This document shows, in pieces, positions 1,148 through 63,157 of a stretch of DNA of 64,000 bases (positions within the stretch are counted from its first letter, which is position 1; the number at the start of each line of letters is the position of its first letter). A program made the position numbers and the translations under genes. The notes under the pieces are model-generated. The model saw only the letters and a program-made list of their open reading frames with translations. It was not told the DNA's origin and did no database searches. Location: NCBI GenBank assembly GCA_044238435.1, contig JBIIDH010000001.1, positions 5,101 to 69,100 of the forward strand, in the 5' to 3' direction. The stretch is from Ilumatobacteraceae bacterium (GTDB taxonomy: Bacteria > Actinomycetota > Acidimicrobiia > Acidimicrobiales > Ilumatobacteraceae).

Positions 1148-1384
1148 TCAGTCGACGATGCGGTCGACGCTGGTGTCGCGCTGCAGGGTGCACCACCGGT
1201 GGCAGCCGCCCGAGTGGAACCACCGCTCGGTCTGCACGCCCGACCCGTTGGTGTAGAACCACACCCGGTGCAGGTCGCGCTCGTTCGGGTCGGTGATCGA
1301 CGCGGGTGCCTCGGGGTCTTCGCCGCCGAAGCGGAACTCTTCCACCGGACGTGGGCCGCAGTGGGGGCAGGGGATCGTCAGCAT
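1148..1384 (-). CDS. soxD: sarcosine oxidase delta subunit
   Basis: 78-aa product MLTIPCPHCGPRPVEEFRFGG… is the typical SoxD N-terminus. It lies 8 nt downstream of soxB. The ORF-track N-terminal extension is spurious. Confidence 0.8.
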   Translation of the reverse strand: MLTIPCPHCGPRPVEEFRFGGEDPEAPASITDPNERDLHRVWFYTNGSGVQTERWFHSGGCHRWCTLQRDTSVDRIVD

Positions 1385-1392
1385 CGTGGCTC

Positions 1393-2601: not shown

Positions 2602-3092
2602 GCCACGGCCCCCAGTCGGTCGGGTACTTCATGGAACGCCGAGCCCGACACGATGAGCAGGGTGCGGTCGGCCTCCATCACCAGCTTGATGGCCAGGCCG
2701 CACACCATGCCCTGGGCCAGCGCCGGCCGGGCGGTGGGCAGCGGCCACTCGAGCTTGTGGGTCAGTGCCGTCAGCTGTGCCGCATCGAGCCAGGCGCCGC
2801 GGAACATGGCCTCGGGTTCGATGATGGCGTGCGGATCGGCGGCGGCCACGGCAGCGGCGTCGTCGACCGTGGCGTCGATGACCAACGCGTCGTCGGGGGC
2901 GACGCGCACCATGATGGCGCCGGCCGGCCAGGAGGCTGCGTCGATGGCAGCGGGATTGGCGGTGATGCGCACAGCCATGAGGGTGGTGAAGCGCATCGGT
3001 TCGAGTGCGTCAGAGGCGGGCACGGGCACCCTCCGGGTCGTAGAACGGGGTGGGAGCGACGGTGGCGGTGCGACCGTCGATGAACACGGCAT
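2598..3092 (-). CDS. soxG: sarcosine oxidase gamma subunit (start uncertain; alternative Met at 2996)
   Basis: A small ORF (133 to 164 aa) wedged between soxA and soxB, translationally coupled to soxB. Size and position fit SoxG. I could not recognise a sequence motif. Confidence 0.55.
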   Translation of the reverse strand: MPCSSTVAPPPSLPPRSTTRRVPVPASDALEPMRFTTLMAVRITANPAAIDAASWPAGAIMVRVAPDDALVIDATVDDAAAVAAADPHAIIEPEAMFRGAWLDAAQLTALTHKLEWPLPTARPALAQGMVCGLAIKLVMEADRTLLIVSGSAFHEVPDRLGAVA

Positions 3093-5214
3093 CGAGGAAT
3101 GGCAGACGTTTCTGCCAGCCGAGCAGCACGGTGTGGCCGAGCAGGGGAGAAGTGAAGCTGGTGGCCACGTGGCCGATCACCTCGCCGCCTTCACGGTCGA
3201 AGATGGGGGCTCCCTCCAAGGGGGCGGGGCCGTCCATCCGCATGCCGAACAGGCGGCGTGAATCCTCGAGGCTCGCCGTGCGGGCCAGCGACGGTCGGCC
3301 GATGAAGAAGGGCTTCTCCATCTTCACGGCCCATTCGAGGCCCAGGCGGGCGGGCGTGGAGTCCATCTCGGAGTCGAGCCCCACGAGGAAGTGGCCCTTT
3401 TCGAGGCGCAGGCCGAACAGCGCCTGCAGGCCGTGCGGGTGGATGCCGAGGTCGGCGCCCAGGCGCATCAGTTCGCGCCACAGTTCGACCGAGTGTGCCG
3501 TGAGGTGGTGCAGCTCGAAGCTGGCCTCGCCGGTGAACGACAGGCGCATCACGTGGCAGGGGACTCCGGCCACTGCGGCGTGCACGTGCTGCAGCATCTT
3601 CGGTGGCTCGGCCAGCCCGGCGCGGCGCAGCAGTTCGCCGGCCAGCGGCCCGGTGACGTTGATCGCTGCCAGCGAGAACGTGCGGTCGAGCACGTGCACG
3701 TCGAGGCCCCAGGTCTCGATCCAGTCGCGTACCCACATCTCGGCGAACGACGCGCCACCCGAGGTGAAGCTGAGGGCGAAACGGGTGTCGCTCTCGCGCA
3801 GGATCATGCCGTCGTCGATGACGTGGCCGCGCTCGTTCAGCAGCAGGGCGTAGCGGCTGCGGCCGGGGCGGATGTCGGCGACGTTGCAGGGGTACAGGCG
3901 CTCGAGCGCTTCGACCACGTCGGGGCCCGACACGATCATCTTGCCCAGCGTCGACACGTCGCCCAGCGACACCGCTTCGCGGACGGCCCAGTACTCGCGC
4001 ACGTGGTCGCCGTAGTTCCAGGGTCGCCACCAGCCGCCGAAGCGGTCCATGTGGGCGCCGAGGGCGAGGTGTTCGTCGTGCAGTGCGGTGCGCCGCCAGG
4101 CGTCGAGGTGCACATCGGCAGCGGCCTCGGCGATGGTGAGCTGACGCGAGGCCGGGCGACCGGTGAACGGTGCCGGCTCGGTGCCGCTGCGGTCGGCGAC
4201 GAAGGCCCGCAGATGCGGCATACATGCCCCGCCCTGACAGGTGCCGGTGCCGCACAGGCTGGCACGCTTCACCAGTTCGAGGTGCTGGAAGCCCTTCTGC
4301 CACACGCCGTCGAGGTCGTCGACGGTCACCTTCGAGCAGGGGCACACCGTGCCGGCCTGCGGGGCTGGCGGGAGGTCGAAGCGCTCGGCGGCCGCACCGA
4401 CGACGCGCACGGAGGGCTCGTCGGTCATGCGGGCGAGCAGGTCGCGAGGTGCTCGGCGAGCGCTGGTCACCACCACGCTGCGGCAGCTGTGCCGGGTGCC
4501 GTCGCGGGTGACCACGGTGTGCACCCAGCCGTCGTCGCCCTCGAAGTGGTCGAGGTCGTCGAGGTCGACGGTGACGCTGTCGTGCAGTTCGATGCCGCGT
4601 GCGGCGAGGTGGGCCGCTGCATCCGGTGTGAGGATGCCGCGCAGCATGTTGCCCTCGCACACCGGGTGCAGTTCGGCGGCACCGGTGGCGATGACCACTT
4701 CGTGGGCGTGCACGTGCAGCATGTGGTCGGGTCGGCGCACGATGACGGTGGGCCCCTGGTAGACGCCCACCACGTCGTCGCCCGACCCGCTGTCGAGCAC
4801 GAGCACCGTGTGACCACCTGCGTGTGCTGCGTCGGCCTCGGCTCGGCCGGCCTCGCTGGCACCGATGACGGCGACGTCGACGTGGGCTCGGCGCACGGCC
4901 ACCTCGATCGGTGGTGCGATGCGGGTGGGGTCGGCCAGCACCGCATTGCGTAGTGGCGGGCCACCCACCAACGGATGCCGGCGCACGTCGAGACCGGGAG
5001 CGGCTGCGGTCTGGCAGGTGCGGGTGAAGCCCACGCCGGCGACGACGGCGGAGCAGTTCCCGCAGTCGCCCGCCAGGCAGAGGGTGCCGCCGTGCTGTGG
5101 GTGCTGGCCGGCGCGGATGATCGCATCGGCCACCGTGTCGCCCGATTCGTAGGGCAGGGGCCGGTCGTCGACCACGATCCGGGCCGCGGAGATCGACTGG
5201 GAGGTCACGGTCAT
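3010..5214 (-). CDS. soxA: sarcosine oxidase alpha subunit (short 734-aa form: ferredoxin-like N-terminus, NAD/FAD domain, GcvT-like folate domain)
   Basis: N-terminus AARIVVDDRPLPYESGDTVADAIIRAG…CLAGDCGNCS matches the SoxA ferredoxin-like region. The C-terminal half is aminomethyltransferase-like. A SD-like AAAGGTG precedes the ATG. Confidence 0.75.
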   Translation of the reverse strand: MTVTSQSISAARIVVDDRPLPYESGDTVADAIIRAGQHPQHGGTLCLAGDCGNCSAVVAGVGFTRTCQTAAAPGLDVRRHPLVGGPPLRNAVLADPTRIAPPIEVAVRRAHVDVAVIGASEAGRAEADAAHAGGHTVLVLDSGSGDDVVGVYQGPTVIVRRPDHMLHVHAHEVVIATGAAELHPVCEGNMLRGILTPDAAAHLAARGIELHDSVTVDLDDLDHFEGDDGWVHTVVTRDGTRHSCRSVVVTSARRAPRDLLARMTDEPSVRVVGAAAERFDLPPAPQAGTVCPCSKVTVDDLDGVWQKGFQHLELVKRASLCGTGTCQGGACMPHLRAFVADRSGTEPAPFTGRPASRQLTIAEAAADVHLDAWRRTALHDEHLALGAHMDRFGGWWRPWNYGDHVREYWAVREAVSLGDVSTLGKMIVSGPDVVEALERLYPCNVADIRPGRSRYALLLNERGHVIDDGMILRESDTRFALSFTSGGASFAEMWVRDWIETWGLDVHVLDRTFSLAAINVTGPLAGELLRRAGLAEPPKMLQHVHAAVAGVPCHVMRLSFTGEASFELHHLTAHSVELWRELMRLGADLGIHPHGLQALFGLRLEKGHFLVGLDSEMDSTPARLGLEWAVKMEKPFFIGRPSLARTASLEDSRRLFGMRMDGPAPLEGAPIFDREGGEVIGHVATSFTSPLLGHTVLLGWQKRLPFLDAVFIDGRTATVAPTPFYDPEGARARL

Positions 5215-5253: not shown

Positions 5254-7297
5254 TCAGGAATGATCGGGGGCGGACGCACCCTGGGCAGTGGACGGTCGGG
5301 TCTGCAGGGTGACGAGTTGCTCGAACGGGATGTGGCAGCGGATGACACCACCGTCGGGAGTGGCCAGCAGCGGCGGCTCGACCGTCGAGCACAGGTCGCC
5401 TTCCAGGCGCCGCGGGCAACGGGTGTGGAACACGCAACCGCTCGGCACGTTCACGGCACTGGGGATCTCGCCCTCGAGCCGGATGCGCTCGCGAGTGTTG
5501 CCGTCGACCGACGGTGCCGCCGACAACAGCGCCTCGGTATAGGGGTGGTGCGGCCCGTCGAACACCCGCTCGGCCGGGCCGAGTTCCATGATGCGGCCGA
5601 GGTACAGCACCGCGATGCGGTCGGACAGATAGCGCACCACGCGCAGATCGTGCGAGATGAACAGATAGCTCGTGCGGCTGTCGCGCTGCAGGTCGCCGAG
5701 CAGGTTCAAGATGGCCGCCTGCACCGATACGTCGAGCGACGAGGTGGGCTCGTCGCACACCACGATGCGCGGCTTGCCGGCGAAGGCACGGGCGATGGCC
5801 ACACGCTGTTTCAGGCCACCCGACAACTGCGAGGGCCGCATGTCGAGGTGGCGGTCGGTGAGACGCACGGCGCTGGTGATGCCGTGCAGCTCGGTGTCGA
5901 TCTCCGCCGCAGGCACCTGGCCCAGGCGGCGCAGACTGCGGCCGATGATGCGCCGCACCGAATGGCGGCGATTGAGCGCCGAGTCGGGGTTCTGGAAGAC
6001 GATCTGGATGGCGCGGATGTGGTCGATCGGGCGCTTCTTGGTGTGCGCCGCGAGGGGCGTGCCGTCGAGTGTGACGACCGCTCCCTTGTCGGGCGCCGTG
6101 ATGCCGAGGATCGTGTGGGCGAGCGTGGTCTTGCCGCTGCCCGATTCGCCCACCAGGCCGAGCGTCTCGCCGGCATACAGTTCGAGCGACACATCGCGGA
6201 CGGCTTGGATCTGCTTGCCGCCCTGCTGGAAGGTCTTGCTCACACCCTCGAGGCGCAGTAGGGGAGCGACGCTGCGGTCGACCACCGTGGCCGTGCCCTC
6301 GGGGAACTCCGACGAGGCCAGTTCGGCCACCCGATCGGTGTGGTGGCAGCGCACCATCCGTCCGTCGAGCACGACCGCAGGCGGCACCTCGGTGCGGCAC
6401 CGGTCGCTCGCCAGCGGGCAGCGATCGACGAACACACAGGTGGGCAGATCGGCGCCGAGCGCAGGCAGGAACCCGGGGATCGTCTCGAGCCGCTGAGCGG
6501 TCTGGCGCGAGCCCTGGCGGGGAAGACAGCGCAGCAGCCCAACGGTGTAGGGGTGCTGCGGATTGTCGAACACCTCTTGGGCCGAGCCCTCCTCGACCAG
6601 CTTGCCTGCGTACAGCACGCCCACCCGGTCGCACATCGAGCGGATGGCACCGAGATTGTGCGAGATGAACAGCACCGAGGTGCCGAACTCGCGCTTCAGG
6701 GCCCGCACCAGGTCGAGCACCTCGGCTTCGACGGTGGCGTCGAGGCCGGTGGTGGGTTCGTCGAGGATGAGCAACTGCGGGCTCGAGGCCAGCGCCATCG
6801 CGATGACCACGCGCTGCTGCATACCGCCGGAGAGCTGGTGCGGGTAGCGGCCCAGCACCGAGTCGGGGTCGGCGATCTGCACCTTGTCGAGCATCTCGCG
6901 CGCCCGTTGGCGCGCCTCGGCACGATCGATGCCGATCACCTCGAAGGCTTCCATCAGTTGCGGACCCACCTTGATGGTGGGGTTCAGGGCCTGGCCCGGG
7001 TCCTGGTAGACGATCGAGGCGTTGTTGGCGCGGAGCAGACGCAGCTCCTCGTTCGGCATCGCCATGATGTCGCGGCCGGCGAGCGACACCGTGCCACCGA
7101 TGATGCGGGCGTTGTCGGGTAGATAGCGCACGGCGGCGTAGGCGGCCGTGCTCTTACCGCACCCGCTCTCGCCCACCAGGCCATACGACTCGCCCGGCGC
7201 CACGGCGAACGACACCCCACGCAACACCTCGCGCAGGTTGCCACGCACCATGTAGCCGAGGCGCAGGTCGTCGAACTGGAGCGCTGCCTCGGTCATC
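5254..7297 (-). CDS. ABC transporter ATP-binding protein, fused tandem ATPase domains (DppD/DppF-like)
   Basis: 681 aa from MTEAALQFDDLRLGY. It has two Walker A motifs (GESGCGKST, GESGSGKTT) and two LSGG signatures. Its ATG overlaps the stop of the upstream permease (ATGA). The ORF-track N-terminal 300 aa are out-of-frame read-through of the permease gene. Confidence 0.9.
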
Positions 7298-8186
7298 GGT
7301 CGATCAGCCCCTGGATCCCGTCGGCGATGAGGTTGATGGCCACCACCAGCGAGGCCAGCGCCAGGGCGGGCACCACACACGGCCACCAGGCGTTGCTCAG
7401 CAGGCCGGCGCGCTCTTCGAAGATGGTGCGGCCCCAGTCGGGCGAGCCGGGCTGGGTGCCGAAGCCGATGAACGCGAGGCCGGCCATGGTGAACACGGCG
7501 TAACCGAGGCGGACGGTGAACTCGACGACGATGGGGCCCATCACGTTCGGCAGGATCTCGACGAACATGATGTAGCTGCTGCGTTCGCCGCGTAGTTCGG
7601 CAGCTCGCACGTAGTCGAGGTTGCGCTCGGCGAGAACGGCAGCGCGGATGGTGCGGGCGATGATGGGGCCGAACAGGATGCCGATGAGCAGGATGATGGT
7701 GCCGCGCCCGCTGCTGAGGGCGGTGAGGGCGAGCAGGGCCACCAAGATGAGCGGCAGGCTCATCAGGGCCTCGATGAGTCGGCTCAATGCGTCGTCGAGC
7801 GGGCCACGGAAGTAGCCCATCAGCAGGCCGAGCACAATGCCGATGACAGTTCCGAGGATGACTGCGGCGGGGGCGACGATCATGATCTCGCGGGCGCCGT
7901 AGATGGCCCGGCTGTACACGTCGCGTCCGAACCGGTCGGTGCCGAACCAGTGGCCTTCCTTGAAGAACGGATGGATCCACTTGCTGAGCGGATCCTGCTT
8001 CGACGGGTCGTGGGTGGCGATGACCGAGGGGATGATCGAGCAGACCACCCAGAACAGCACGATGAGCGAGCCGACGATGAAGGTCTTCGACCGGAACAAC
8101 TGGCGGCGCAACTCCTTGCGCACCGCCTTGGCGGTGTACCCGGTGGGCGCACCGGCCGTCGGTTCGAGTTCGGCGGGCATGGTCAT
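7293..8186 (-). CDS. ABC transporter permease (DppC/OppC-like)
   Basis: 297 aa from MTMPAELEP, multi-TM, with a typical permease C-terminus. It overlaps the upstream permease stop by 4 nt. Confidence 0.85.
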   Translation of the reverse strand: MTMPAELEPTAGAPTGYTAKAVRKELRRQLFRSKTFIVGSLIVLFWVVCSIIPSVIATHDPSKQDPLSKWIHPFFKEGHWFGTDRFGRDVYSRAIYGAREIMIVAPAAVILGTVIGIVLGLLMGYFRGPLDDALSRLIEALMSLPLILVALLALTALSSGRGTIILLIGILFGPIIARTIRAAVLAERNLDYVRAAELRGERSSYIMFVEILPNVMGPIVVEFTVRLGYAVFTMAGLAFIGFGTQPGSPDWGRTIFEERAGLLSNAWWPCVVPALALASLVVAINLIADGIQGLIDR

Positions 8187-9130
8187 TGCTTGTTCCCCAG
8201 TCGGACACGGGGGTTGAGCCAGGCGATGAGCACGTCGGCGATGAAGTTCAAGAACATCGCGATGGCGCCCACGATGAAGACCGACCCCATCAGCATCGGG
8301 ATGTCGCGGTCGCCGGCGGCATCGAAGACGAGCAAGCCGAGCCCGCGGTAGTTGAAGAGGGTCTCGGTGACCAACAGGCCACCGAGCAGGTAGCTCACCT
8401 GCACCGCGATGACGGCGATGGTGGGCACGAGCGAGTTGCGCAACACGTGGCGCCGCAGCACGGTGCGCCGCGGCAGGCCCTTCAAGATGGCCGTGCGGGT
8501 GTAGTCGGCCGACAATGCCTCGATGGTGCCGGCTCGTGTCATGCGTGACAGGTACCCGAACAGGATGGCGCTGAGGGTGACCGCAGGAAGGATGAGCACC
8601 TGGATCTGCTCCCAGATCGAACCTTTGGCCGAGCCGCCCGATGGCAGCCATCCCAGCTTCACCGCGAACACGATGATCAGCACGATGCCGATGACGAACT
8701 CGGGCGTGACGGCCAGGCTGAGACCTGCCACGGTGATGAACCGGTCGACGGTCTTGCCCTTGCGCAACGCTGCCACGGTGCCGCCGACGATGCCCAGCGG
8801 CACGACGATGAGGAAAGTCATTGCCGCCAGCTTCAACGACGACCACAGCGCTTTCGGCACGAAGTCCATCACCGGTGCCTTGAACTTGTAGGAGTTGCCG
8901 AAGTCGCCTTGCAGCGCATCGGTGAACCAGCGGATGTAGCGCCCGACCAGCGGCCCGTCGACCCCCAACTCGCGGTTGAGGTTGTCGACGGACTGCTGGT
9001 CGGCGAACGGACCGAGGATGGCTCGCCCCACACTTCCGGGCAGCACAGCGGCAATGGTGAACACCACCACGCTGAGGAGGAACAGCGTGATGAGGGCCAG
9101 GCCGAGCCGGCGGAGGACGAAGCGAGCCAT
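8183..9130 (-). CDS. ABC transporter permease (DppB/OppB-like)
   Basis: 315 aa, MARFVLRRLGLALITLFLLSVVVF…, with the six-TM BPD_transp_1 architecture. Confidence 0.85.
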   Translation of the reverse strand: MARFVLRRLGLALITLFLLSVVVFTIAAVLPGSVGRAILGPFADQQSVDNLNRELGVDGPLVGRYIRWFTDALQGDFGNSYKFKAPVMDFVPKALWSSLKLAAMTFLIVVPLGIVGGTVAALRKGKTVDRFITVAGLSLAVTPEFVIGIVLIIVFAVKLGWLPSGGSAKGSIWEQIQVLILPAVTLSAILFGYLSRMTRAGTIEALSADYTRTAILKGLPRRTVLRRHVLRNSLVPTIAVIAVQVSYLLGGLLVTETLFNYRGLGLLVFDAAGDRDIPMLMGSVFIVGAIAMFLNFIADVLIAWLNPRVRLGNKQ

Positions 9131-9168: not shown

Positions 9169-10956
9169 TCAGGCGATGGTGACGCCGTCGACGAAGTAGT
9201 GGCCCATGCCCGTGGCGACCGCTCCCGAGACGTTGGCCTTGGTGACCGACAGGAAGTTGATCGCGAACGGGATGAGCATCGGCACCTCGTCCTGCAGGAT
9301 GCCGGTGATCTTCTCGCCGGCGGCCTTCTGGCCCTGCAGGTCGGGGGTCGACGAGTACTCGTCGACCGCTGCGTCGAAGTCGGCGTTCGCGAACTCGGCC
9401 GCGTTCCACACGCCCGCACCGTCTTCGACGCTCTTGAAGCTCTTCAGCGCAGCGTTCAGGTACACGTCGGGCACACCGCGGTGGCCGTAGTCGGTGATGC
9501 CGATGTCGGCGCCCGGCACGCTGGGGTCGTAGGTGCGCACCCAGTTCTTGTCGTAGTAGTCGTCGCGCAGCTCGATCGTGAGGTTGATCCCGATCTCCTT
9601 GGCGGCGTTCTGCAGGATGACGGCCAGGTCGGGGGCCTCGAAGTAGTTGATGCCGTAGAGCGTGGCGTCGAAGCCGCCACCGGCATCGGCGACGAGCTGC
9701 TTGGCCTTCTCGACGTCGTACGGCGTCTCGGGCACGTTGCCGGCCGACGGGTACATCCCGAACAGCGGCGTGTCGTACGCAGCGGCGGCGCGACCACCGA
9801 AGATGGCCTCGATGATGGCCTTGCGGTCGGTGGCGAGCGCCATGGCCTGGCGGATGCGCTTGTCGGCGAAGGGACCTTCCGAGCACCGCATGTGGATCTG
9901 GCGGTGGTTGGCCGAGGGGATCTCGGAGATCGTGTAGTCGGGGTTGTCGAACAGCGACTCTGCGCCTGCGTAGTTGAACTGCGGGATGGCGTCGATCTCG
10001 TCGGACTGGAACGCAGCAACGGTGGCCGCCTGGTCGCTGAAGAACGTGAACTCGAGGCCGCCGAGGCTCATCGGCTTGCCCCAGTAGTTGGGGTTCGGCA
10101 CGTAGACGACACCCGAGGTGGCGTCGAACGACTTGATGGTCCAGGGGCCCGTGGTGGCGATCTTGCCGGCGGCCACGTCGGCGGCGAAGTTGCTGGTGTC
10201 GGTGACCGAGGCGGGCAGGATGACCGCGTTGTAGTTGTCGCTCGACACGATGTACGGGAAGTTGGCGAACGGCCCGTTCAGGGTGAACACCACGGTGGTG
10301 TCGTCGGCGGCCTTGGTGCCACCGGGCGACAACTTGCCCGTGCTGAACGCCGACAGCGAGTTCGAGTTGTTGGCGGGGTCGACGAGGCGCTCGATGGTGG
10401 CCACGACATCGGCCGCCGTGACGGGGGAGCCATCGCTGAACTTGGCAGCCGGGTCGAGCTTGAAGGTCCACTCGGTGGCATCGGCGTTGGCCGACCACTC
10501 CTTGGCGAGCGACGGGCTGAGCGTGAGGTCGGGGTTCGACAGGGTGAGGAACTGGCCCACCTGGCTGAGCAGGATGAGGCCACCACCGTCGTTGACGAGC
10601 ACCGGGTCGAGCGTGGCCGACGCAGCCGACGGCGCGACGCCGGCGACACGGAGGGTGCCGCCCCGGGCAGCGGGGGCGCTGGTCTCGACCGGAGCGGCCG
10701 TGGTCTCGGTGGCTCCGCCGCCGGCCGTGGTCTCGGTGCCGCCGCCGGCGGCCGTGGTGGACGCCGACTCCTTGTCGTCGCCGCAGGCGGCGATGACGGC
10801 ACCGATCGCGGGCAGCGAGAGCCCGACGACCGTGCCCCGACGGATGAAGCCACGCCGCGACAAGCGGCCGGCCACGAATTCGTCGATCACGTGATTGGCG
10901 ACGTCGCCCTGTGTGCGGCGGATGCCGTCGATACGGGCGTGGTCCTTGCTGTTCAT
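9169..10956 (-). CDS. ABC transporter substrate-binding protein, family 5 (peptide/opine/nickel type), Tat-signal lipoprotein-like
   Basis: Start at MNSKDHARIDG…. It has a twin-arginine motif SRRGFIRRG, a hydrophobic stretch …AIGAVIAACGDD and a Thr/Gly-rich linker, with SBP_bac_5-like length. GGGGGA lies upstream of the ATG. The ORF-track upstream 66 aa are spurious. Confidence 0.8.
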   Translation of the reverse strand: MNSKDHARIDGIRRTQGDVANHVIDEFVAGRLSRRGFIRRGTVVGLSLPAIGAVIAACGDDKESASTTAAGGGTETTAGGGATETTAAPVETSAPAARGGTLRVAGVAPSAASATLDPVLVNDGGGLILLSQVGQFLTLSNPDLTLSPSLAKEWSANADATEWTFKLDPAAKFSDGSPVTAADVVATIERLVDPANNSNSLSAFSTGKLSPGGTKAADDTTVVFTLNGPFANFPYIVSSDNYNAVILPASVTDTSNFAADVAAGKIATTGPWTIKSFDATSGVVYVPNPNYWGKPMSLGGLEFTFFSDQAATVAAFQSDEIDAIPQFNYAGAESLFDNPDYTISEIPSANHRQIHMRCSEGPFADKRIRQAMALATDRKAIIEAIFGGRAAAAYDTPLFGMYPSAGNVPETPYDVEKAKQLVADAGGGFDATLYGINYFEAPDLAVILQNAAKEIGINLTIELRDDYYDKNWVRTYDPSVPGADIGITDYGHRGVPDVYLNAALKSFKSVEDGAGVWNAAEFANADFDAAVDEYSSTPDLQGQKAAGEKITGILQDEVPMLIPFAINFLSVTKANVSGAVATGMGHYFVDGVTIA

Positions 10957-11075
10957 GATCCCCCCAGAGGTCGTTGGTCGGTGCAGTATTGCACACACCC
11001 GATGTGTTGGTTCAGAGCAACCCCAGTTGCGATGAAACTCCTGACGTGCCCCGCGGCAGACAGTACCATCCGCCC

Positions 11076-11879
11076 ATGCCCAGCACCCTTGCGTCGGTCG
11101 TCGATCTCGAGTCCTATCCGCTCGATCGGGTCGGGTCGGATGACTGGATCGCACTCGTCGAACGGTGTCGCGCCGAGCTGATCGACCGGGGCATGTTCGA
11201 GTTGCCGGGCTTCCTGCGCGCCGATGTGCTGGCCGACATCACCGCCCGACTGCTGCCACGGATGGCGACCGAGTCGTGGGAGCAGCGACGGATGCACAAC
11301 ATCTACTTCCTCGACCACGTCGAGGGTCTGGCGCCCGACCATCCGGCCCTGCACCGCATCCTCACCGTGAACCACACCCTGTGCGCCGACCAGCTGCGCG
11401 ACACGGCGCTCACCGAGTTGTACGAGTGGGAGCCGTTCCGTCAGTTCATCGCCGCCACCGTGGGCATGGACGAGTTGTACCTGATGGACGACACCCTGGC
11501 CCGCGTGAACGTGCTCAGTTATCGCCCCGGCGAGGCGCTGAACTGGCACTTCGACCGATCGGTGTTCACCACCACGTTGCTGCTGCAGGCCGCCGAGCAC
11601 GACGGCATCTTCGAGTACCGCCGCGAGCTGCGCACCGACACCGACCCCAACTACGAGGGTGTGGGCCACGTCGTGGCGGGCACCGACCCCGACGTCATCC
11701 GCTGCGCGGTGCAGCCCGGGGCGCTCAACGTGTTCTTCGGCAAGAACACGGCCCACCGGGTCACCACCGTGGAGGGTTCGCTCGAGCGGATGATCGCCGT
11801 GTTCTCGTTCTACGACCGGCCCGGTGTGGTGTTCACCGACAGCGAGAACCTCGGCTTCTACGGTCGCACTGCACCGTGA
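11076..11879 (+). CDS. putative Fe(II)/2-oxoglutarate-dependent oxygenase (small PhyH/IDO-like)
   Basis: 267 aa from MPSTLASVVDLESY. It has a candidate HxD…H facial triad (NWHFDRS … NTAHRVTTV). It is divergent from the SBP operon and immediately upstream of the Rieske oxygenase. Family assignment is tentative. Confidence 0.5.
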   Translation: MPSTLASVVDLESYPLDRVGSDDWIALVERCRAELIDRGMFELPGFLRADVLADITARLLPRMATESWEQRRMHNIYFLDHVEGLAPDHPALHRILTVNHTLCADQLRDTALTELYEWEPFRQFIAATVGMDELYLMDDTLARVNVLSYRPGEALNWHFDRSVFTTTLLLQAAEHDGIFEYRRELRTDTDPNYEGVGHVVAGTDPDVIRCAVQPGALNVFFGKNTAHRVTTVEGSLERMIAVFSFYDRPGVVFTDSENLGFYGRTAP

Positions 11880-13021
11880 ACCCGACGCAGCCCGCCGGAG
11901 CGCTGGCCGCCGTGAGGCGTGCCCTCGTGGCGGCCGAGCAGCAGGGCTACGACGACGCCTGGTCGCTGCCGCACGAGGCCTACACCGATACCGACCTCCT
12001 GGCCGTCGAGCAGTTGGAACTGTTCGGCCAGGAGTGGGTGTGCATCGGTCGGGGCGACGAGATCGCCCACGTGGGCGACACGATGCCGTTCCAGCTCTGC
12101 GACGAGCCGCTCGTCGCAGTGCGCGGCGACGACGGTCGGGTTCGTGTGCTGTCGAACGTGTGCCGTCACCGCGGTGCCATCGTCGTGCCCGAACGCAGCC
12201 AGGGGTCGCATCTGCTGTGCCCCTACCACCACTGGTCGTACGACCTCGACGGGGCGCTGGCCCGCGCCCCGCGCCTCGACGAGCACACTGCGTTCGAGCC
12301 AGCCGCCTGCCGCCTGCCGGAGGTGGCCTGCGAGGAGTGGCTCGGGTTCCTGTTCGTGTCGCTGGCCGACCGACCAGCGCCCCTGGCGCCCCGTCTGGCC
12401 GGGCTCGAAGCGCTCGTCGGTAACTACCACCTCGAACAGATGACCACCCGCTTCGTGGCCGACGAGGTGTGGCCCACCAACTGGAAGTGCTTCGTCGAGA
12501 ACTTCATGGAGGGCTACCACCTCACCCCGCTGCACCGAACCACTCTGCACCCGGTGAACCCCACCCGACTGTGCCGGCACTACGAACCCGGCGACGCCTA
12601 TTTCGGCTATCACGCCGGGTTCTCGCCCGATCTGCCGCGCAGCGAGCGCGGCCATCCAGACCTGTCGCCCGCAGAGGTCGACAACTGCGTGATGTTCGCC
12701 ATCCCGCCCGGCCTGGTGTCGGGGTGCGCGGGCGACTACAGCTCGTTCATCTGCATCCAGCCCGAGAGCGTCGACCGGGTGCGGTTGAAGATGGGGCTGC
12801 AGTTCTTCGGCGAGCACTGGACCGACGAACTGGTCGAGCACGCCGCGGTGCTGTTCCAGGAGACGAACGCCGAGGACCGCGTGGTGCTCGAGGGCATCAC
12901 CCGGGCCTATCGGTCACGGCACCATCGGCCGGGGCCACTCGCCCCGGCCGCGTTCGAAGGACCGATCCACGACTTCCACCGGTACCTGGCCAGGCGGCTG
13001 GTACCGGCGCTGGGCGCCTGA
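11876..13021 (+). CDS. Rieske non-heme iron oxygenase alpha subunit, GbcA/Stc2/CntA-like (betaine N-demethylase type)
   Basis: The GTG start overlaps the upstream stop (GTGA). N-terminus LPHEAYTDTDLLAVEQLELFGQEWVCIGRGDE is typical of the family. The Rieske motif is CRHRG…x17…CPYHHW, followed by a C-terminal catalytic domain. The ORF-track N-terminal 237 aa are out-of-frame junk. Confidence 0.8.
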   Translation: MNPTQPAGALAAVRRALVAAEQQGYDDAWSLPHEAYTDTDLLAVEQLELFGQEWVCIGRGDEIAHVGDTMPFQLCDEPLVAVRGDDGRVRVLSNVCRHRGAIVVPERSQGSHLLCPYHHWSYDLDGALARAPRLDEHTAFEPAACRLPEVACEEWLGFLFVSLADRPAPLAPRLAGLEALVGNYHLEQMTTRFVADEVWPTNWKCFVENFMEGYHLTPLHRTTLHPVNPTRLCRHYEPGDAYFGYHAGFSPDLPRSERGHPDLSPAEVDNCVMFAIPPGLVSGCAGDYSSFICIQPESVDRVRLKMGLQFFGEHWTDELVEHAAVLFQETNAEDRVVLEGITRAYRSRHHRPGPLAPAAFEGPIHDFHRYLARRLVPALGA

Positions 13022-13029
13022 TCAGGCGC
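13014..13029. other. perfect 16-bp palindrome GCGCCTGATCAGGCGC containing both stop codons of the convergent Rieske and DMGO genes
   Basis: Seen in the sequence. The genes abut with a zero-length spacer (TGA/TCA). Confidence 0.3.
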
Positions 13030-15481
13030 GCATCCGCAGGCCCTCGGGGTCGAGCACCGGCTCGTGCTGCAGCGTCGCCGGGCGACGACGGCCCATGATC
13101 TCGATCTCGAAGCCCGATTCGGCCGTAGCGATCTCGGTGGGGACGTAGCCGAGGGCCAGCGACACCGCCGAGTAGTGGGCGTAGCCGCCACTGGTGATCC
13201 AGCCGACCACCTCGCCGTTGTGCCACACCGGCTCGTCGCCGATCACGTCGGCGGGGGCATCGGGGTCGACCTCGACACGGAACATGACGAGCTTGCGCTT
13301 CGGGCCGCCGGCGGCGATCTCGGCCTCGACGGCTGCACGTCCGATGAACTCGTGGTCGAACTTCAGCGAACGGTCCATGCCGGCCTCGAGCGGCGTGTAG
13401 ATGGGCCGGTACTCGCGGTACCAGGTGCCGAAGTTCTTCTCGAGACGCATCGTGATGAGCGCTCGGAAGCCGAACAGGCGCATGTCGAACTCCTGGCCGG
13501 CCTCCCAGATGAGGTCGAACAGGTAGCGCTGGTACTCGGGCTCCATCCAGATCTCGTAGCCGAGATCGCCCGAGTAGGTCATCCGGCTCAGCCACACCGG
13601 CGCCATGCCGAGGTTCACCTTGCGGAACGCCATGAACGGGAAGTCCTTCGTGGCGAGCGAGGTGTCGGTGAGCTTCTGGAGCACATCGCGCGACAGCGGA
13701 CCAGCCACGGTGAGGCCCACCATCGACAGACGGAGGTTCTCGAAGCGGATGGGGCTGCCTTCGGGCAGGTGCGAGAGGAACCACCGCGGGTGGTGCACCT
13801 CGGCGGCCTGCGAGCCGAACAGGAAGAACTCGTCGTCGCCGATGCGGCTGACCGAGAACTCGCCCTCGATACGACCCTGCGGGTTCAGCATCGCAGTGAG
13901 GTTGGTGCGGCCGATCTTCGGCAGGCTGTTGGTGAACAGACCCTGCAGCCACTCGGCTGCGCCGGGGCCACTCACCTTGTACTTGGCGAAGTTCGAGGCC
14001 TCGCTGAAGCCCACCCGCTCGCGCACCGCACGGCTCTCCTCGGCCACCACGTCGAACGCGTTCGAACGCAGGAAGGTGATGTTCTCGACCGGCTCGAGGC
14101 CCGGCTTCTGGAACCACAGCGGGTGCTCGAGACCCATCGCCGCGCCCCACACCGCATTGTGCGCGGTGAGACGGTCGTAGATGGGGGTGGTGAGCAGCGG
14201 ACGTGCCGCCGGCAGTTCCTCGTTCGGGAAGGTGATGCGGAAGCGCCGCGAGTAGTTCTCGCGCACTTTCGAGTTGGTGTATGCGAGGGTGGCGAAGTCG
14301 CCGTAGCGGGCCACGTCCATGCCCCAGATGTCGGCACCCGGGTCGCCGTTCACCATCCACTCGGCGAGGCTGAGGCCCACGCCACCGCCCTGCGACAGAC
14401 CGGCCATCACGGCGCACGCCGACCACATGCCGCGCATGCCCTTGATGGGGCCCACCAGCGGGTTGCCGTCGGGGCTGAACGTGAACGGCCCGTTCACGAA
14501 CCGCTGGATACCGGCGCGGCCGACGGCGGGGAAGTGCTCGAAGGCCCGCTCGAGCTCGGGCGAGATGCGGTCGAGGTCGTGGGGGAGCAGCTGCGAGACG
14601 AAGTCCCACGGGGTCTGCTTGGCCGACCACACCCGGTTCTCCTGCTCGTAGGTGCCGAGCAGGATGCTCTGGCCCTCCTGGCGGGCGTAGATCTCGCCGG
14701 CGAAGTCGATCATGTGGGGCAGTTCGCGGCCGTGCGTCTGGTTGTACTCGATCACCTCGGGCATCGGCTCGGTCATCAGGTAGTGGTGCTCCATCGCCAG
14801 CACCGGCAGCTCCAAGCCGCACATCCGGCCCACTTCACGGGCCCACAGACCGCCGGCGTTCACGACGTGCTCGGTGTGGATGACACCCTTGTCGTCGCCG
14901 GTGTTCGGGTCGTAGCAGTGCACGTCCCAGGTGCCGTCCTGACGCTGGGTGAGCTTGTTCACCCAGGTGTGCTGGTAGGTCTCGGCGCCGCGGTTGCGGG
15001 CGCAGATGAGGTACGCGTTGGTCACGCCGGTGGGGTCGACGCTGCCCTCGTCCTCGTCGTACATCGCGCCGACGAAGAAGCGCTCCTCGAGCAGCGGGTT
15101 CAGCTCCTTGGCCTCCTTCATCGACATCATCTCGGTCTTCATGCCGAGGTAGCGGCCGCGGGCGTGCGCCATGCGCAGCCAGTCGAGGCGCTCGGGCGTG
15201 TCGGCCAGCTGCAGGCCGCCGGGCAGGTGGATGCCGCAGTTCTGGCCGCTCTCGGCCTCGATCTCGCGGTACAGGTTCACCGTGTACTGCTGCAGGCGGG
15301 CCACGTTGGGGTCGCCGTTCAGCGTGTGCATGCCACCTGCGGCATGCCACGTGCTGCCCGAGGTGTACGTCGCCTTCTCGACGAGAACGACATCGGACCA
15401 GCCGGCCTTGGTGAGGTGGTACAGCACGCTGGCGCCGACCACACCTCCACCGATGACGACGACCTGGGTTGAGGTTTTCAT
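13022..15481 (-). CDS. dimethylglycine oxidase / sarcosine-dimethylglycine dehydrogenase family flavoenzyme (FAD DAO domain fused to GcvT folate-binding domain)
   Basis: 819 aa from MKTSTQVVVIGGGVVGASVLYHL (Rossmann GxGxxG). The C-terminal half is glycine-cleavage-T-like. AGGAG lies 7 nt upstream of the ATG. The 120-aa ORF-track extension is spurious. Confidence 0.85.
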   Translation of the reverse strand: MKTSTQVVVIGGGVVGASVLYHLTKAGWSDVVLVEKATYTSGSTWHAAGGMHTLNGDPNVARLQQYTVNLYREIEAESGQNCGIHLPGGLQLADTPERLDWLRMAHARGRYLGMKTEMMSMKEAKELNPLLEERFFVGAMYDEDEGSVDPTGVTNAYLICARNRGAETYQHTWVNKLTQRQDGTWDVHCYDPNTGDDKGVIHTEHVVNAGGLWAREVGRMCGLELPVLAMEHHYLMTEPMPEVIEYNQTHGRELPHMIDFAGEIYARQEGQSILLGTYEQENRVWSAKQTPWDFVSQLLPHDLDRISPELERAFEHFPAVGRAGIQRFVNGPFTFSPDGNPLVGPIKGMRGMWSACAVMAGLSQGGGVGLSLAEWMVNGDPGADIWGMDVARYGDFATLAYTNSKVRENYSRRFRITFPNEELPAARPLLTTPIYDRLTAHNAVWGAAMGLEHPLWFQKPGLEPVENITFLRSNAFDVVAEESRAVRERVGFSEASNFAKYKVSGPGAAEWLQGLFTNSLPKIGRTNLTAMLNPQGRIEGEFSVSRIGDDEFFLFGSQAAEVHHPRWFLSHLPEGSPIRFENLRLSMVGLTVAGPLSRDVLQKLTDTSLATKDFPFMAFRKVNLGMAPVWLSRMTYSGDLGYEIWMEPEYQRYLFDLIWEAGQEFDMRLFGFRALITMRLEKNFGTWYREYRPIYTPLEAGMDRSLKFDHEFIGRAAVEAEIAAGGPKRKLVMFRVEVDPDAPADVIGDEPVWHNGEVVGWITSGGYAHYSAVSLALGYVPTEIATAESGFEIEIMGRRRPATLQHEPVLDPEGLRMRA

Positions 15482-17156: not shown

Positions 17157-17221
17157 TCCTTGTACGGTTGTCTCGCGAATGGCCGAGCCGGCCGCGTGTC
17201 GTGGAGGAGAGGGGCCGAGCC

Positions 17222-18391
17222 GTGAGCACGATCGTCGCCATCGACATCACCCACCACCAACTGGTGCTCGACCCACCGTTCCCGGCGTCGTGGGATCCGC
17301 AGCCCCGCACGCGGTTCCCCGCCACGATCGTGCGGGTCCGCGACAGCGAGGGTCGGGTGGGCGTGGGCTCGGGCGATGCGATGTACGGCTTCGCCGACTA
17401 CGCCCGCTGGTTCCTGGGCGAGGACCCGCTCGATCTCCAGCAGCACGCGGCCTGCCTGGCCAACGTGGGCTTCCATGCCGGTCGCCCGTGGCCGCTCGAC
17501 GTGGCCCTGTGGGATCTCGCCGGTCAGATCCGCGAGCAGCCGGTGTGGTCGATGCTCGGTGGACGATCGCCCCGGCTGCGGGTATACGCCTCCACCGCAG
17601 TGCACAGGCCGGTGGCGGCGATGGTGGAGGTGGCCCGACGACTCGTCGACGAGGGCTTCGACGCGATGAAGGTGCGGTTCGGTCGAGCGTCGCTGGCCGA
17701 CGACCTGGCCGTCGTGCGCGCGGTTCGAGATGCGGTCGGGCTGGCGCTGACCCTCATGGTCGACTGCAACCAGGGGTGGCGCATGCCGTGGGACACCCAG
17801 GCCCCCTGGCATCTCGACCAGGCCACCGAGGTGGCGCTGGCCCTGCAGCGCGAGGGCGTGTACTGGATGGAGGAACCGCTGCACCGCGGCGACTACGGCG
17901 CGATGAGCGAACTGCGGCGGCGGGTGCGCGAGGCGGCCATCGGTGAGGCACCGATGCTGATCGCCGGCGGCGAGATGACACGTGAGCCGTACGAGTTCGA
18001 CGAGTTGCTGCGACGCGATTGCCTCGACGTGTTCCAGCCGGACGTGGTGTGCACGCAGGGGTTCGCTGCACTCGCCTCGCTGGGGCGCCGCGTGGTGGCC
18101 GACGGCAAGGTGTTCACGCCGCACACGTGGGGTAACGGCATCGGGGTGCTGGCCAACCTCCATCTGACGGCCGGGTCGGTGGGCCACGAGGGGTCGCGGT
18201 GGGTGGAGTTCCCGCTCGACCCACCGGAATGGAGTATCGAGCGACGCGACTACCCGCTCGAATCTCCGATCACTGCAGAGCGCGGTGAACAGGGCATGTG
18301 GGTCGAGCTCGGCGAGCGACCCGGTCTCGGCATCGACCTCGACGAACAGCGCCTCGCGGCCACCGCCAGTGCCTCGGCCACCTTCTCCTGA
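17222..18391 (+). CDS. enolase-superfamily enzyme, mandelate racemase/muconate-lactonizing-enzyme subgroup (racemase/epimerase/dehydratase)
   Basis: GTG start [12 protein letters not shown] preceded by GGAGGAGAGGGG. It has N-terminal capping and C-terminal barrel features (…MVDCNQGW…EEP…DV…). It is divergent from the MttB gene. Confidence 0.8.
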
Positions 18392-18417
18392 CCGTCGGCC
18401 TGGTTAGCCTCCACACC

Positions 18418-19584
18418 GTGTCCACCATCGCCAGCATCGTCGCCACCCCGGTCAACGTGCCGATGGTGGCGCCCTACCGGTTCTCGTTCGGCACTCTCGC
18501 CAGCTTCACCACCACCATCGTCGAGGTCACCGACAGTGACGGGGTCACCGGCATCGGCGAGACCCCGCACGGCGACCTCTCGGGCCTGATCTCCTCGATG
18601 GGCGCGCAGCTCGCCGGTTGCTCGGTCGACGACCTGAACGGGTGCGAAGCCCGGTGTGTGGCCCGCACCGGCTTCAGCCTGTGGGACGACTCGGCCAACG
18701 AGCGGCGGGCGTTCGGCGGCATCGAGATGGCGCTGTGGGACCTGCGGGCCAAGCGTGCCGGTGTTCCGCTGGTCGACCTGCTCGGTGGCCGAGTGCGCGA
18801 CAGCGTGGCGTTCACCGAGTACTTCGCGCTGCGCGTGGGCCGTGAGGAGACACCCGTCGACGTGGTGCGCTACTGCGAGCAGATCGCCGCCGATTTCGAC
18901 GCCCGGGTGTTCGAGGGCAAGCTCGGCGTGCTCGACGTGGAGACCGAGATGGCCATGGTGGCCGATCTGGTGCGGGCGCTCGGGCCGGGCCGGGTGCAGC
19001 GCCTCGATGCCAACGGCGTGTACACCGTGCCCACCGCTCGTCAGGTGGTGCGACGGCTCGCCGATCTGGGAGTGGGCTGGCTGGAAGACCCGTGCCGTAC
19101 CCACGACGAGACGGCCCGTCTACGCGCCGACGGGGCGCCGATCTCGTTCAGCACCCACCAGGTCGACCTCGCCCGCGCCGCCCGCGATGGCGTGCCCGAT
19201 GCCTTCTGCATCGACGCCACCGAGATGGGCGGCCTGCGACGCACGCAGGACTTCCTGCGCGCCTGCGCTGCGCTCGGCATCGACTTCTGGTGCTACAGCG
19301 GCGACGCCGGCGTGATGACCGCCGCCTACCTGCACCTCACCGCGGCGGAGGCATCGATGATCCGTCCGCACCAGAGCCTGTTCCGGTTCACCGCCGACGT
19401 GGTCGTCGAGCAGGGTCACTACTCGCCGAGGGGTGGTGTGCTGCCGGTGCCCGAGGCACCCGGCCTCGGTGTCACCATCGATCGGGCGGCCTTGGCTCGG
19501 CTCCATGAACGCTTCCGTGCCGAAGGGTCGATGGCGGCATCCGATGGCGACGGCGGGTACCGCCAGCAGTTCCGTCAGCAGTAG
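18418..19584 (+). CDS. enolase-superfamily enzyme (second tandem paralog)
   Basis: GTG start VSTIASIVATPVNVP, the same VSTI start as its neighbour. It has MR/MLE-like features (…LDANGVYT…EDP…). It lies 27 nt after the first copy. Confidence 0.8.
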   Translation: MSTIASIVATPVNVPMVAPYRFSFGTLASFTTTIVEVTDSDGVTGIGETPHGDLSGLISSMGAQLAGCSVDDLNGCEARCVARTGFSLWDDSANERRAFGGIEMALWDLRAKRAGVPLVDLLGGRVRDSVAFTEYFALRVGREETPVDVVRYCEQIAADFDARVFEGKLGVLDVETEMAMVADLVRALGPGRVQRLDANGVYTVPTARQVVRRLADLGVGWLEDPCRTHDETARLRADGAPISFSTHQVDLARAARDGVPDAFCIDATEMGGLRRTQDFLRACAALGIDFWCYSGDAGVMTAAYLHLTAAEASMIRPHQSLFRFTADVVVEQGHYSPRGGVLPVPEAPGLGVTIDRAALARLHERFRAEGSMAASDGDGGYRQQFRQQ

Positions 19585-19616: not shown

Positions 19617-20231
19617 GTGGCGCGGACACCCGATCTCGAGCGTCGGCAGGAACTGCTCGACCGGATCGTCGATCACCTCGCCGAACACGGCCTCGCGCAG
19701 ACGACGTTGCGGCCACTCGCCGCCTCGCTCGGTGTCAGCATCAACCGCCTCGTGCACCATTTCGGTACCAAGGAGGAGCTGCTCGCCACGGCGTTGCGCC
19801 GCGGTGTCGAGCGGCAGAACGAGATCGAGGACGCGTGGATCGAGCGCGACCCGTCGATCTCGATGGCCGACATCTACCGCAAGTGGTGGAAGTGGATGAA
19901 CGCCAAACCGCAGAACCTGGCGCTCGTTCGACTCGGGTACGAGGCGGCTGCACTGAACACCACCGTCACCGGTCTCCCCGGCGACCTGCGCGCCGACCAG
20001 TTGGCGGTGTGGCGGCACTTCGTGGAGGAGAAGCTGCACCGCGAGGGCCTGCCCATGCCGCTCGCCCAGAGCGAGGCATCCATCCAGAAGGCCATCTTCA
20101 CCGGGTTGATCATCGACCTCGTGGCGTCGGGCGATCGCAAGCGACTCGGTGCAGCACTCGAGGTGTCGCTGCAGCGGCTCGAGGCGCTCATCGCCGCGGC
20201 CCGCGCCTCCACCGAACTGTCCGACACATAG
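19617..20231 (+). CDS. TetR-family transcriptional regulator
   Basis: 204 aa with an N-terminal HTH (LAEHGLAQTTLRPLAASLGVSINRLVHHFGTKEELL). GTG start. Confidence 0.8.
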   Translation: MARTPDLERRQELLDRIVDHLAEHGLAQTTLRPLAASLGVSINRLVHHFGTKEELLATALRRGVERQNEIEDAWIERDPSISMADIYRKWWKWMNAKPQNLALVRLGYEAAALNTTVTGLPGDLRADQLAVWRHFVEEKLHREGLPMPLAQSEASIQKAIFTGLIIDLVASGDRKRLGAALEVSLQRLEALIAAARASTELSDT

Positions 20232-62911: not shown

Positions 62912-63157
62912 ATGAAGGTCTGGATCGACCAGGATCTGTGCACCGGCGACGGCCTGTGCGAGGAGATCGCCCCCGATGTCTTCACCCTGCTCGACGATGG
63001 CCTTGCCTACGTCCGAGAAGGCGACAAGATCTTCGCCGCCGCCAAGGGCCTTCCCCAGGGCGCCGAGGGTCTGGCGAACATCCCCGACAACAAGCTCGAC
63101 GGGGTCATCGAGAGCGCCGAGGAGTGCCCCGGCGAGTGCATCTTCATCGAACCCTGA
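62912..63157 (+). CDS. ferredoxin (single-cluster, FdxA/Fer-like)
   Basis: 81 aa. MKVWIDQDLCTGDGLCEEIAPDVF…ECPGECIFIEP, with a CxxGxC…C cluster motif. Confidence 0.8.
   Translation: MKVWIDQDLCTGDGLCEEIAPDVFTLLDDGLAYVREGDKIFAAAKGLPQGAEGLANIPDNKLDGVIESAEECPGECIFIEP

Follow-up and report, generated by a model that had tools for sequence, protein, structure and literature searches.

Two adjacent genes in a 64,000-nucleotide (nt) stretch of contig JBIIDH010000001.1 from an Ilumatobacteraceae bacterium (the whole of this 64-kb stretch is called the window below) encode a putative Fe(II)/2-oxoglutarate (2OG) oxygenase, ORF A, and a Rieske oxygenase, ORF B, which are most likely at the heart of a hitherto undescribed degradation pathway for a methylated-nitrogen compound. 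This pair is not a local oddity, as it is kept across two phyla beside an importer. Its genes overlap, both proteins have intact catalytic residues, ORF A has a recognisable fold, and no reductase gene is linked to them. We found no published description of such a Rieske and 2OG oxygenase pair in the literature.

ORF A (267 amino acids) starts with an ATG at position 11076 and ends with a TGA at 11877-11879, and ORF B (381 amino acids) starts with a GTG at 11876 and ends with a TGA at 13019-13021. The stop codon of the former and the start codon of the latter share four nucleotides, GTGA, in the string ccGTGAacc. Both the GTG start overlapping the stop of a 267-residue frame and the translational coupling described in an earlier reading of this DNA (hereafter the original prediction) are borne out by these coordinates. 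Both genes have about 0.9 GC at third codon positions (GC3) and low GC at second positions (GC2), like the other genes of the window, whose overall GC content is about 0.69. Identical 267- and 381-residue proteins were predicted by independent gene callers on other metagenome contigs, and the N-termini of both proteins agree with those of their homologues. The stop codon of ORF B abuts, with a 0-nt spacer, that of a convergent gene for a flavoprotein resembling dimethylglycine dehydrogenase (DMGDH-like; TCA on the forward strand, 13022-13024), and no terminator-like hairpin was found at this junction (13019-13024).

ORF B is predicted to belong to a new clade of group V (quaternary-amine) Rieske oxygenases, nearer to the C-N-cleaving Va enzymes than to GbcA and Stc2. 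It matches the Pfam families PF00355 (Rieske; 61 bits, cut-off 20) and PF00848 (Ring_hydroxyl_A; 71 bits, well over the cut-off). CntA is its best and sole full-length solved relative (E-value 7e-34, residues 25-351, 27% identity); Stc2 (residues 29-222 only), 3n0q, 4qup and all aromatic dioxygenases align to the N-terminal half only. The NCBIfam equivalog model for GbcA, NF058607, gives 145.5 bits against a cut-off of 670 and covers residues 9-222 only, which leaves ORF B outside that family. The Rieske [2Fe-2S] motif (C96-R-H98 and C115-P-Y-H118), the mononuclear iron ligands H215, H220 and D334 (H208, H213 and D323 in CntA) and the bridging Glu212 (E205 in CntA) are invariant in 10 orthologues; the roles of the iron-site and bridging residues are known in CntA (PMC7948474). 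Also invariant in these orthologues is Phe210, in ENFMEGYH, at the position of CntA Tyr203, in DNYMECYH. This tyrosine, which contacts the trimethylammonium group by a pi-cation interaction, is the defining residue of subgroup Va, and the CntA Y203F mutant is still active (PMC7948474). The description of ORF B as GbcA/Stc2-like thus fails for its catalytic half, in view of the low GbcA score, the full-length match to CntA and Phe210 as a mark of group Va. A Cys-x-x-Cys pair found beside the iron site in CntA and Stc2 (PMC10952381) is missing from ORF B, which has Gly213 and Leu216 at the positions of CntA Cys206 and Cys209; only some group V members carry such a pair. Together with the MttB, DMGDH-like and StcD-like neighbours described below, the residues of ORF B suggest activity on a quaternary ammonium substrate. 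An AlphaFold model of ORF B built from a 10-sequence alignment had a predicted local distance difference test score (pLDDT) of 52.7, too low for a fold search.

As for ORF A, its Pfam scores are below the cut-offs for both PF23169 (HalD; 17.9 bits, cut-off 26) and PF13640 (16.1 bits, cut-off 27), and an NCBIfam profile search gave no match. It has more than 3,700 homologues, those from Alphaproteobacteria being 57-59% identical, and a precomputed PF23169 match is present in many of them. With its AlphaFold model (AF2; pLDDT 91), the best Foldseek matches were HalD, HalB, BesD, HalA and the BesD-like hydroxylase Hydrox, with template modelling (TM) scores of about 0.65, a probability of 1.0 and 10-17% identity. 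Residues H158, D160, H227 and R238 are invariant in 15 sequences and correspond to the HxD...H triad and to the basic residue for the C5 carboxylate of 2OG. In a profile alignment with HalB spanning residues 35-241, their counterparts are H-x-G, H and R, so that the triad of the 2OG-type frame first proposed proves intact. The motif of ORF A reads W-H-F-D, with an invariant Asp160, and that of HalB and HalD W-H-W-G. The presence of HxD rather than HxG/A argues for a hydroxylase-type oxygenase and not a halogenase; judged by this motif, the public name 'HalD/BesD family halogenase' is wrong for the ORF A clade. The next residue, Arg161, is also invariant, and HalB has an Asp there. In BesD-like enzymes, Neugebauer et al. 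in 2019 reportedly found that the acidic residue after the motif binds the alpha-amine of the substrate. An arginine at this position hints at a binding mode unlike that of enzymes acting on free lysine or ornithine, which we regard as a lead and not as a firm test.

Orthologues of ORF B, with 55-95% identity, occur in Actinomycetota and many Alphaproteobacteria; a 92%-identical relative is found on a contig of an Actinomycetota metagenome-assembled genome (MAG), and others in Ilumatobacteraceae and Acidimicrobiia MAGs. We collected 48 genome loci with an ORF B orthologue of at least 55% identity, and an ORF A homologue is present at 46 of them. The two genes are adjacent on the same strand, in either order, at 38 loci. 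A 4-nt stop/start overlap was seen at 16 loci, in both phyla and in both gene orders (A-B, and B-A in Hypericibacter and relatives), and A is located 1-5 kb off on the opposite strand at about nine loci. One of the two loci without A (L021) is cut by a contig end. Loci whose Rieske protein falls below about 55% identity mostly lack A. Pairwise identities among the A proteins correlate with those among the B proteins (r = 0.79; Mantel test, 0/2000 permutations), and the two proteins have similar evolutionary rates. Altogether, these conservation data exclude a chance adjacency of A and B.

The gene families around the pair at these loci were counted by tblastn with reference proteins. An SBP_bac_5 ATP-binding cassette (ABC) importer of the Dpp type is found beside the pair at 36 of the 48 loci and MttB at 15, followed by a DddP-like M24 protein (14 loci; 324-388 bits, cut-off 600), a DMGDH-like flavoprotein (7), Ldh_2 (6), an enolase-family gene (4) and a StcD-like FMN/FAD (flavin) enzyme (3). 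A Hyphomicrobiales MAG (L031) has the gene order MttB-Ldh_2-A-B-M24-ABC. On plasmid pWSM1497 of the cultured rhizobial strain Mesorhizobium sp. WSM1497 (L102 7327-14853, A9K65_RS32690-32715), the order is LysR / MttB-Ldh-A-B-SBP, SBP denoting the substrate-binding protein gene, past which the module is interrupted by an IS91 transposase. Other cultured strains with the module are Sulfitobacter sp. LCG007, Chachezhania sediminis and Hypericibacter adhaerens. The M24 proteins near the pair or near A alone (e.g. L053 11146-12375, L009 10786-12030 and L018 3615-4850, all in the score range given above) form an uncharacterised sister group of a sulfonium lyase, the dimethylsulfoniopropionate (DMSP) lyase DddP. 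Long stop-to-stop ORFs at two loci were considered as possible fusions. At L054, an A-B or MttB-B fusion was rejected, as A and B are in different frames with a 14-nt gap; at L067, the fusion was rejected by reasoning only.

The pairing of the two oxygenases noted in the original prediction holds in one direction: B is almost never found without A, but A is common without B, in several settings. In Roseovarius, A is found with LysR and a DddP-like M24 protein, in Mesorhizobium with an enolase-family gene and the same type of importer, and elsewhere alone with LysR and a major facilitator superfamily (MFS) transporter. In Leeia oryzae (L012 10001-12689), it is followed by a glutathione-dependent formaldehyde dehydrogenase, S-(hydroxymethyl)glutathione dehydrogenase (TIGR02818, 629 bits, cut-off 544), and then by a gene resembling glutathione S-transferase (GST). 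Two thiamine pyrophosphate (TPP) enzymes near A, one directly downstream and convergent (L016 10830-12434) and one about 5 kb off (L009 3795-5372), pass the cut-off of the subfamily model for 5-guanidino-2-oxopentanoate decarboxylase (AruI), which hints at a route for basic amino acids or 2-oxo acids. In Hypericibacter and Mesorhizobium, the enolase genes adjoining A approach cis-3-hydroxy-L-proline dehydratase in score (381 and 363 bits, cut-off 500). Copies of A without B intermingle with the B-linked ones in the tree, at 63-68% identity. Given its occurrence without B, A looks like a hub, to which B and the methyl-removing enzymes would be an add-on for a methylated form of the substrate of A.

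No FNR-, VanB-, GbcB- or CntB-type reductase was revealed by Pfam searches of essentially every ORF of the window, nor was a ferredoxin reductase of the glutathione-reductase type. A motif search of 80 related genome loci, extending up to 10 kb on each side, identified no VanB/GbcB/CntB-type ferredoxin domain by the gene; ORFs with the C..G.CG.C motif at orthologue loci amount to a few short isolated matches of about 95-160 amino acids, far from the pair. No reductase gene was present in the Pfam- or RefSeq-annotated orthologous contexts. The lack of an adjacent reductase, first noted next to the pair, thus extends to the whole window and, within 10 kb, to about 48 orthologous loci. The sole free-standing ferredoxin of the window, a Fer4_15 protein (62912-63157), adjoins the genes of a Pup-proteasome cluster. 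It was rejected as a dedicated partner of ORF B, being 50 kb off and beside Pup-proteasome genes. That it was the only ferredoxin of the window is correct for free-standing proteins but not for domains, as a SoxA-like protein (3010-5214) bears an N-terminal Fer2_4 domain. This protein belongs to a set of sarcosine-oxidase/N-methylglutamate-dehydrogenase-like genes directly past the ABC importer (1148-5214, reverse strand), in the order A-like (with Fer2_4), a 132-amino-acid ORF, B-like and D-like.

A precedent for sharing unlinked partners exists in aerobic MttB/MtgB enzymes, for which MtgC and MtgD are encoded at other sites (PMC12478193). In the window, another Rieske oxygenase, of the KshA_C type (24262-25239, forward strand), likewise has no reductase nearby according to Pfam. 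Its gene is overlapped by 4 nt by an Amidohydro_2 gene (23393-24265, forward strand), which makes this a further coupled pair. No linked reductase was found for a Rieske relative of about 50% identity in a gammaproteobacterial MAG (L082; Pfam) or for one of 41% identity on a Leisingera plasmid (gene table). In the former genome (L082 9971-14082), the Rieske gene has no HalD-like neighbour and is followed by genes for a class II aldolase and a 537-amino-acid protein with an N-terminal Rieske domain. Given the second Rieske oxygenase of the window and these distant relatives, the lack of a linked reductase is probably ordinary. It is general in this Rieske branch, and an unlinked donor is the simplest reading.

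The conservation of the pair with one importer across two phyla makes sequential oxidation of one substrate, already proposed in the original prediction, the best reading of the data. We consider it somewhat more probable than not that one imported cationic N-methylated carboxylate is oxidised in successive steps by A and B, with an unlinked donor reducing B. The two proteins would then be the co-translated oxidative core of an uptake-and-catabolism island, whose substrate would be a cationic, carboxylate-bearing N-methylated compound such as a betaine or a trimethylammonium amino-acid-like osmolyte. The divergent Dpp-type ABC system would import this compound. As its conserved residues suggest, B might hold the charged nitrogen with Phe210, which would play the part of Tyr203 in CntA, and hydroxylate a carbon next to the nitrogen, which would yield formaldehyde by demethylation or an amine and an aldehyde by C-N cleavage. 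The Fe/2OG enzyme A would hydroxylate the same carbon skeleton, one step earlier or later. Going by family and context, the MttB-type methyltransferase and the DMGDH-like flavoprotein could strip the remaining N-methyl groups. The electrons for B would come from a reductase or ferredoxin encoded elsewhere, and A would not be a reductase substitute.

Several points weigh against this scheme. Its functional steps are all inferred. The search for reductases at the orthologous loci combined a sequence motif with Pfam spot checks over about 10 kb on each side. An actinobacterial locus, in the Ilumatobacteraceae MAG EUL_283 (L023), has a true B without A at that position. The frequent 4-nt overlaps in both orders exceed the needs of a shared pathway and would fit a physical complex equally well. 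Lastly, the contexts of A diverge, with a formaldehyde dehydrogenase in Leeia, AruI-type enzymes at two loci and cis-3-hydroxyproline-dehydratase-like enolases at three, so that the assumption of one substrate is not secure. Attempts to name the substrate from context led to proline betaine, trimethyllysine, guanidino acids and beta-alanine betaine, each of which fits some neighbours and none all; none was adopted. As for the arrangement in EUL_283 (L023 9840-11134), the Rieske orthologue (72% identity) starts about 130 nt from the binding-protein gene, which is divergent, and the interval contains no HalD-like gene.

A more specific form of the sequential scheme, which differs only in the chemistry of A, is a demethylation relay. 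A would itself be an oxidative N-demethylase that hydroxylates an N-methyl group and releases formaldehyde. A trimethylated nitrogen would lose one methyl group to MttB or the Rieske enzyme, the next to A and the last to the DMGDH-like flavoprotein. The position of A in Leeia oryzae, directly before the formaldehyde dehydrogenase and GST-like genes, hints that A may release formaldehyde, but this link comes from one locus. At loci with B, three further classes of N-methyl-removing enzymes surround A, but several A-only loci have no other methyl-handling gene. The invariant Arg after the HxD motif, an Asp in HalB, suggests binding different from that of free lysine or ornithine; yet the characterised relatives with the fold of A all act on side-chain C-H bonds of free amino acids (PMC10041140). 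On balance, we regard the relay as rather unlikely. The recurrence of 4-nt overlaps in both gene orders and both phyla, the almost strict dependence of B on A, their similar evolutionary rates and correlated distances, and the lack of a linked reductase at any orthologous locus in the motif search could all be accounted for by a stable heteromer of A and B that channels an intermediate or, in the extreme form, by A bypassing or altering the need of B for a reductase. Such an obligate complex is improbable, as A is common without B and is 1-5 kb off on the opposite strand at about nine loci. The suggestion that the 2OG oxygenase stands in place of a reductase was an over-reading, since we know of no chemistry by which a 2OG oxygenase delivers or exports electrons, and the other Rieske genes examined here also lack a linked reductase. 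Slightly less probable still is an obligate A-B machine in which the 2OG enzyme alters or replaces the dependence on a reductase, or channels an unstable hydroxylated intermediate into the Rieske site, although it would explain the clade-wide lack of a linked reductase, the rarity of B without A and the coupling in both orders.

Biosynthetic amino-acid halogenases and a hydroxylase are the nearest structural relatives of A, so that A and B might also modify an amino acid destined for a natural product, in the manner of BesD/HalD-type enzymes. This is very improbable: A has HxD and not the HxG/A of halogenases, and the genes conserved nearby encode an importer, LysR or TetR regulators and demethylases. 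Genes for non-ribosomal peptide synthetases (NRPS), polyketide synthases (PKS) or export are not conserved; a single AMP-binding/PP-binding set was found, past the transporter at L018. It is just as hard to believe that B is an ordinary aromatic ring-hydroxylating dioxygenase alpha subunit with an unrelated neighbour, as implied by its name in RefSeq and JGI, 'aromatic ring-hydroxylating dioxygenase subunit alpha'. CntA, Stc2 and other quaternary-amine enzymes are closer to B, aromatic dioxygenases matching its N-terminal half only, and a beta-subunit gene was found neither in the window nor in orthologous contexts annotated by Pfam or RefSeq. The surrounding genes are concerned with methylated amines, and the association with A is kept at 46/48 loci.

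Relative to known betaine-type Rieske islands, the combination of enzymes, the Rieske clade and the catabolic context, a first for the BesD/HalD fold, are new. In the two-component systems GbcAB, CntAB and HpbBC, the reductase gene is beside that of the oxygenase, GbcA being linked to its reductase GbcB, unlike what we found for B. Like B, CntA of CntA/CntB (YeaW/YeaX), in group Va, is an alpha-only enzyme with the Rieske ligands, a His-His-Asp iron site, a bridging Glu and an aromatic residue at the Tyr203 position. However, the two proteins differ in the Cys pair described above, and CntA Tyr225 aligns with His235 of B, indicating that, by this alignment reading, at least one pocket residue differs. 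Furthermore, B has no CntB-type reductase gene by it and, unlike CntA, has a 2OG oxygenase as its partner. GbcA/GbcB (BmoA/BmoB) and Stc2, of group Vb, share with B the superfamily, the broad substrate class and an N-terminal Rieske half that aligns well, but group Vb enzymes have no aromatic residue at the Tyr203 position (PMC7948474), where B has Phe210. In outline architecture, the island of the window resembles the Hpb cluster (HpbD-HpbB/HpbC-HpbA) of Paracoccus and Rhodobacter, with its Rieske demethylase, flavin N-demethylase, enolase-superfamily enzyme, regulator and transporter (PMC3950512). However, HpbC is the partner of HpbB, and a 2OG oxygenase is in the partner position here; the enolase-family proteins of the window are not HpbD-specific, and its transporter is of the peptide/opine type. 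As for A, its best structural matches, the BesD/HalA-D halogenases and the lysine hydroxylase Hydrox (PDB 6nie, 7u6h, 7u6j and 7jsd), differ from it in the motif and, for HalB, in the Asp at the position of Arg161, and A is found in a catabolic and not a biosynthetic context. Gamma-butyrobetaine hydroxylase (BBOX), of the TauD family, and CntA catalyse known reactions that could follow one another, from gamma-butyrobetaine to carnitine and from this to trimethylamine and malic semialdehyde. This offers an analogy for A and B, namely a 2OG oxygenase followed by a Rieske oxygenase on one trimethylammonium carboxylate, but A does not belong to the TauD/BBOX family, and BBOX and CntA are not encoded as a pair. 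CntA also takes gamma-butyrobetaine directly (PMC7948474). The homarine hom operon, considered as a possible match, is unrelated: the paper on it mentions neither an oxygenase nor 2-oxoglutarate, and its route goes via N-methylglutamate.

The features of the island are collected in the table below. No sigma-70 consensus was found in the divergent intergenic region (10957-11075), a result that is uninformative for a high-GC actinobacterium. NCBIfam matches of the binding protein are generic and below cut-off, and those of the DMGDH-like flavoprotein are of the GcvT and SoxA types only. The MttB-type protein encoded beside the latter scores 315 bits with the trimethylamine (TMA) methyltransferase model TIGR02369, below its cut-off of 525. 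It has a paralog in the window (26624-28138, forward strand), also without an in-frame amber codon, the two scoring about 315-321 bits against that cut-off. The enolase-family genes were considered as candidates for HpbD (hydroxyproline betaine epimerase), which was not supported, as NCBIfam and PDB matches are generic only; the HpbD structures 2pmq and 4h2h match the proteins at about 1e-22 and rank behind many others. Farther away, a TauD-family 2OG oxygenase gene (34166-35155) is followed by a Beta_elim_lyase gene (threonine-aldolase-like; 35212-36279), both on the forward strand. These are the enzyme types of trimethyllysine hydroxylase and hydroxytrimethyllysine aldolase of carnitine biosynthesis. 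A ThyX (Thy1) ORF (44186-45781, reverse strand) encodes 531 amino acids, about twice the usual length, with its best Thy1 stretch in the C-terminal part (residues 309-496).

Table. Features of the island in the window, with the basis of each assignment (THF, tetrahydrofolate).
Feature	Position	Strand	Basis or remark
ABC importer remainder: permeases (8183-9130 and 7293-8186) and fused double ATPase (5254-7296)	5254-9130	-	Pfam on the identical gene set of L004
SBP_bac_5 (Dpp/Opp/Nik-type) binding protein, divergent from ORF A	9169-10956	-	Pfam domains, related contexts
Divergent intergenic region (119 nt), presumed promoter/operator	10957-11075		Between the binding-protein gene and ORF A
ORF A, predicted Fe(II)/2OG oxygenase, BesD/HalD fold, hydroxylase-type (HxD)	11076-11879	+	Fold match, invariant residues
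ORF B, predicted alpha-only Rieske non-haem iron oxygenase, group V, CntA-like	11876-13021	+	Rieske and Ring_hydroxyl_A domains, CntA match
DMGDH-like flavoprotein DAO-FAO_M-GCV_T (819 amino acids), candidate THF-linked N-demethylase	13022-15481	-	Pfam on orthologues L005 and L014
MttB-superfamily methyltransferase (538 amino acids), no in-frame amber codon	15540-17156	-	PF06253 on orthologues
Two enolase-superfamily (MR_MLE) genes (17201-18391 and 18418-19584)	17201-19584	+	Pfam; kept in the actinobacterial cluster version
TetR-family regulator, cluster edge	19617-20231	+	Pfam TetR_N; also in L005, L017, L020 and L023

Methylated nitrogen osmolytes are major carbon, nitrogen and methyl-group currencies in water and soil, and the enzymes that attack them determine whether trimethylamine or formaldehyde is released. 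The module described here is carried by Ilumatobacteraceae- and Acidimicrobiia-type Actinomycetota MAGs and by many Alphaproteobacteria, including rhizobia and roseobacters. Cooperation of the two oxygenase classes on compounds of this kind has not been described, and no member of either clade is characterised. Because some carriers are cultured, the module is directly testable, and the strain with pWSM1497 is a convenient experimental system. Working it out would correct the annotations 'HalD/BesD family halogenase' and 'aromatic ring-hydroxylating dioxygenase' and would reveal the electron source of reductase-less group V Rieske enzymes. It would also give the BesD/HalD fold its first catabolic role and would probably extend the map of betaine and carnitine metabolism by a new substrate or route.

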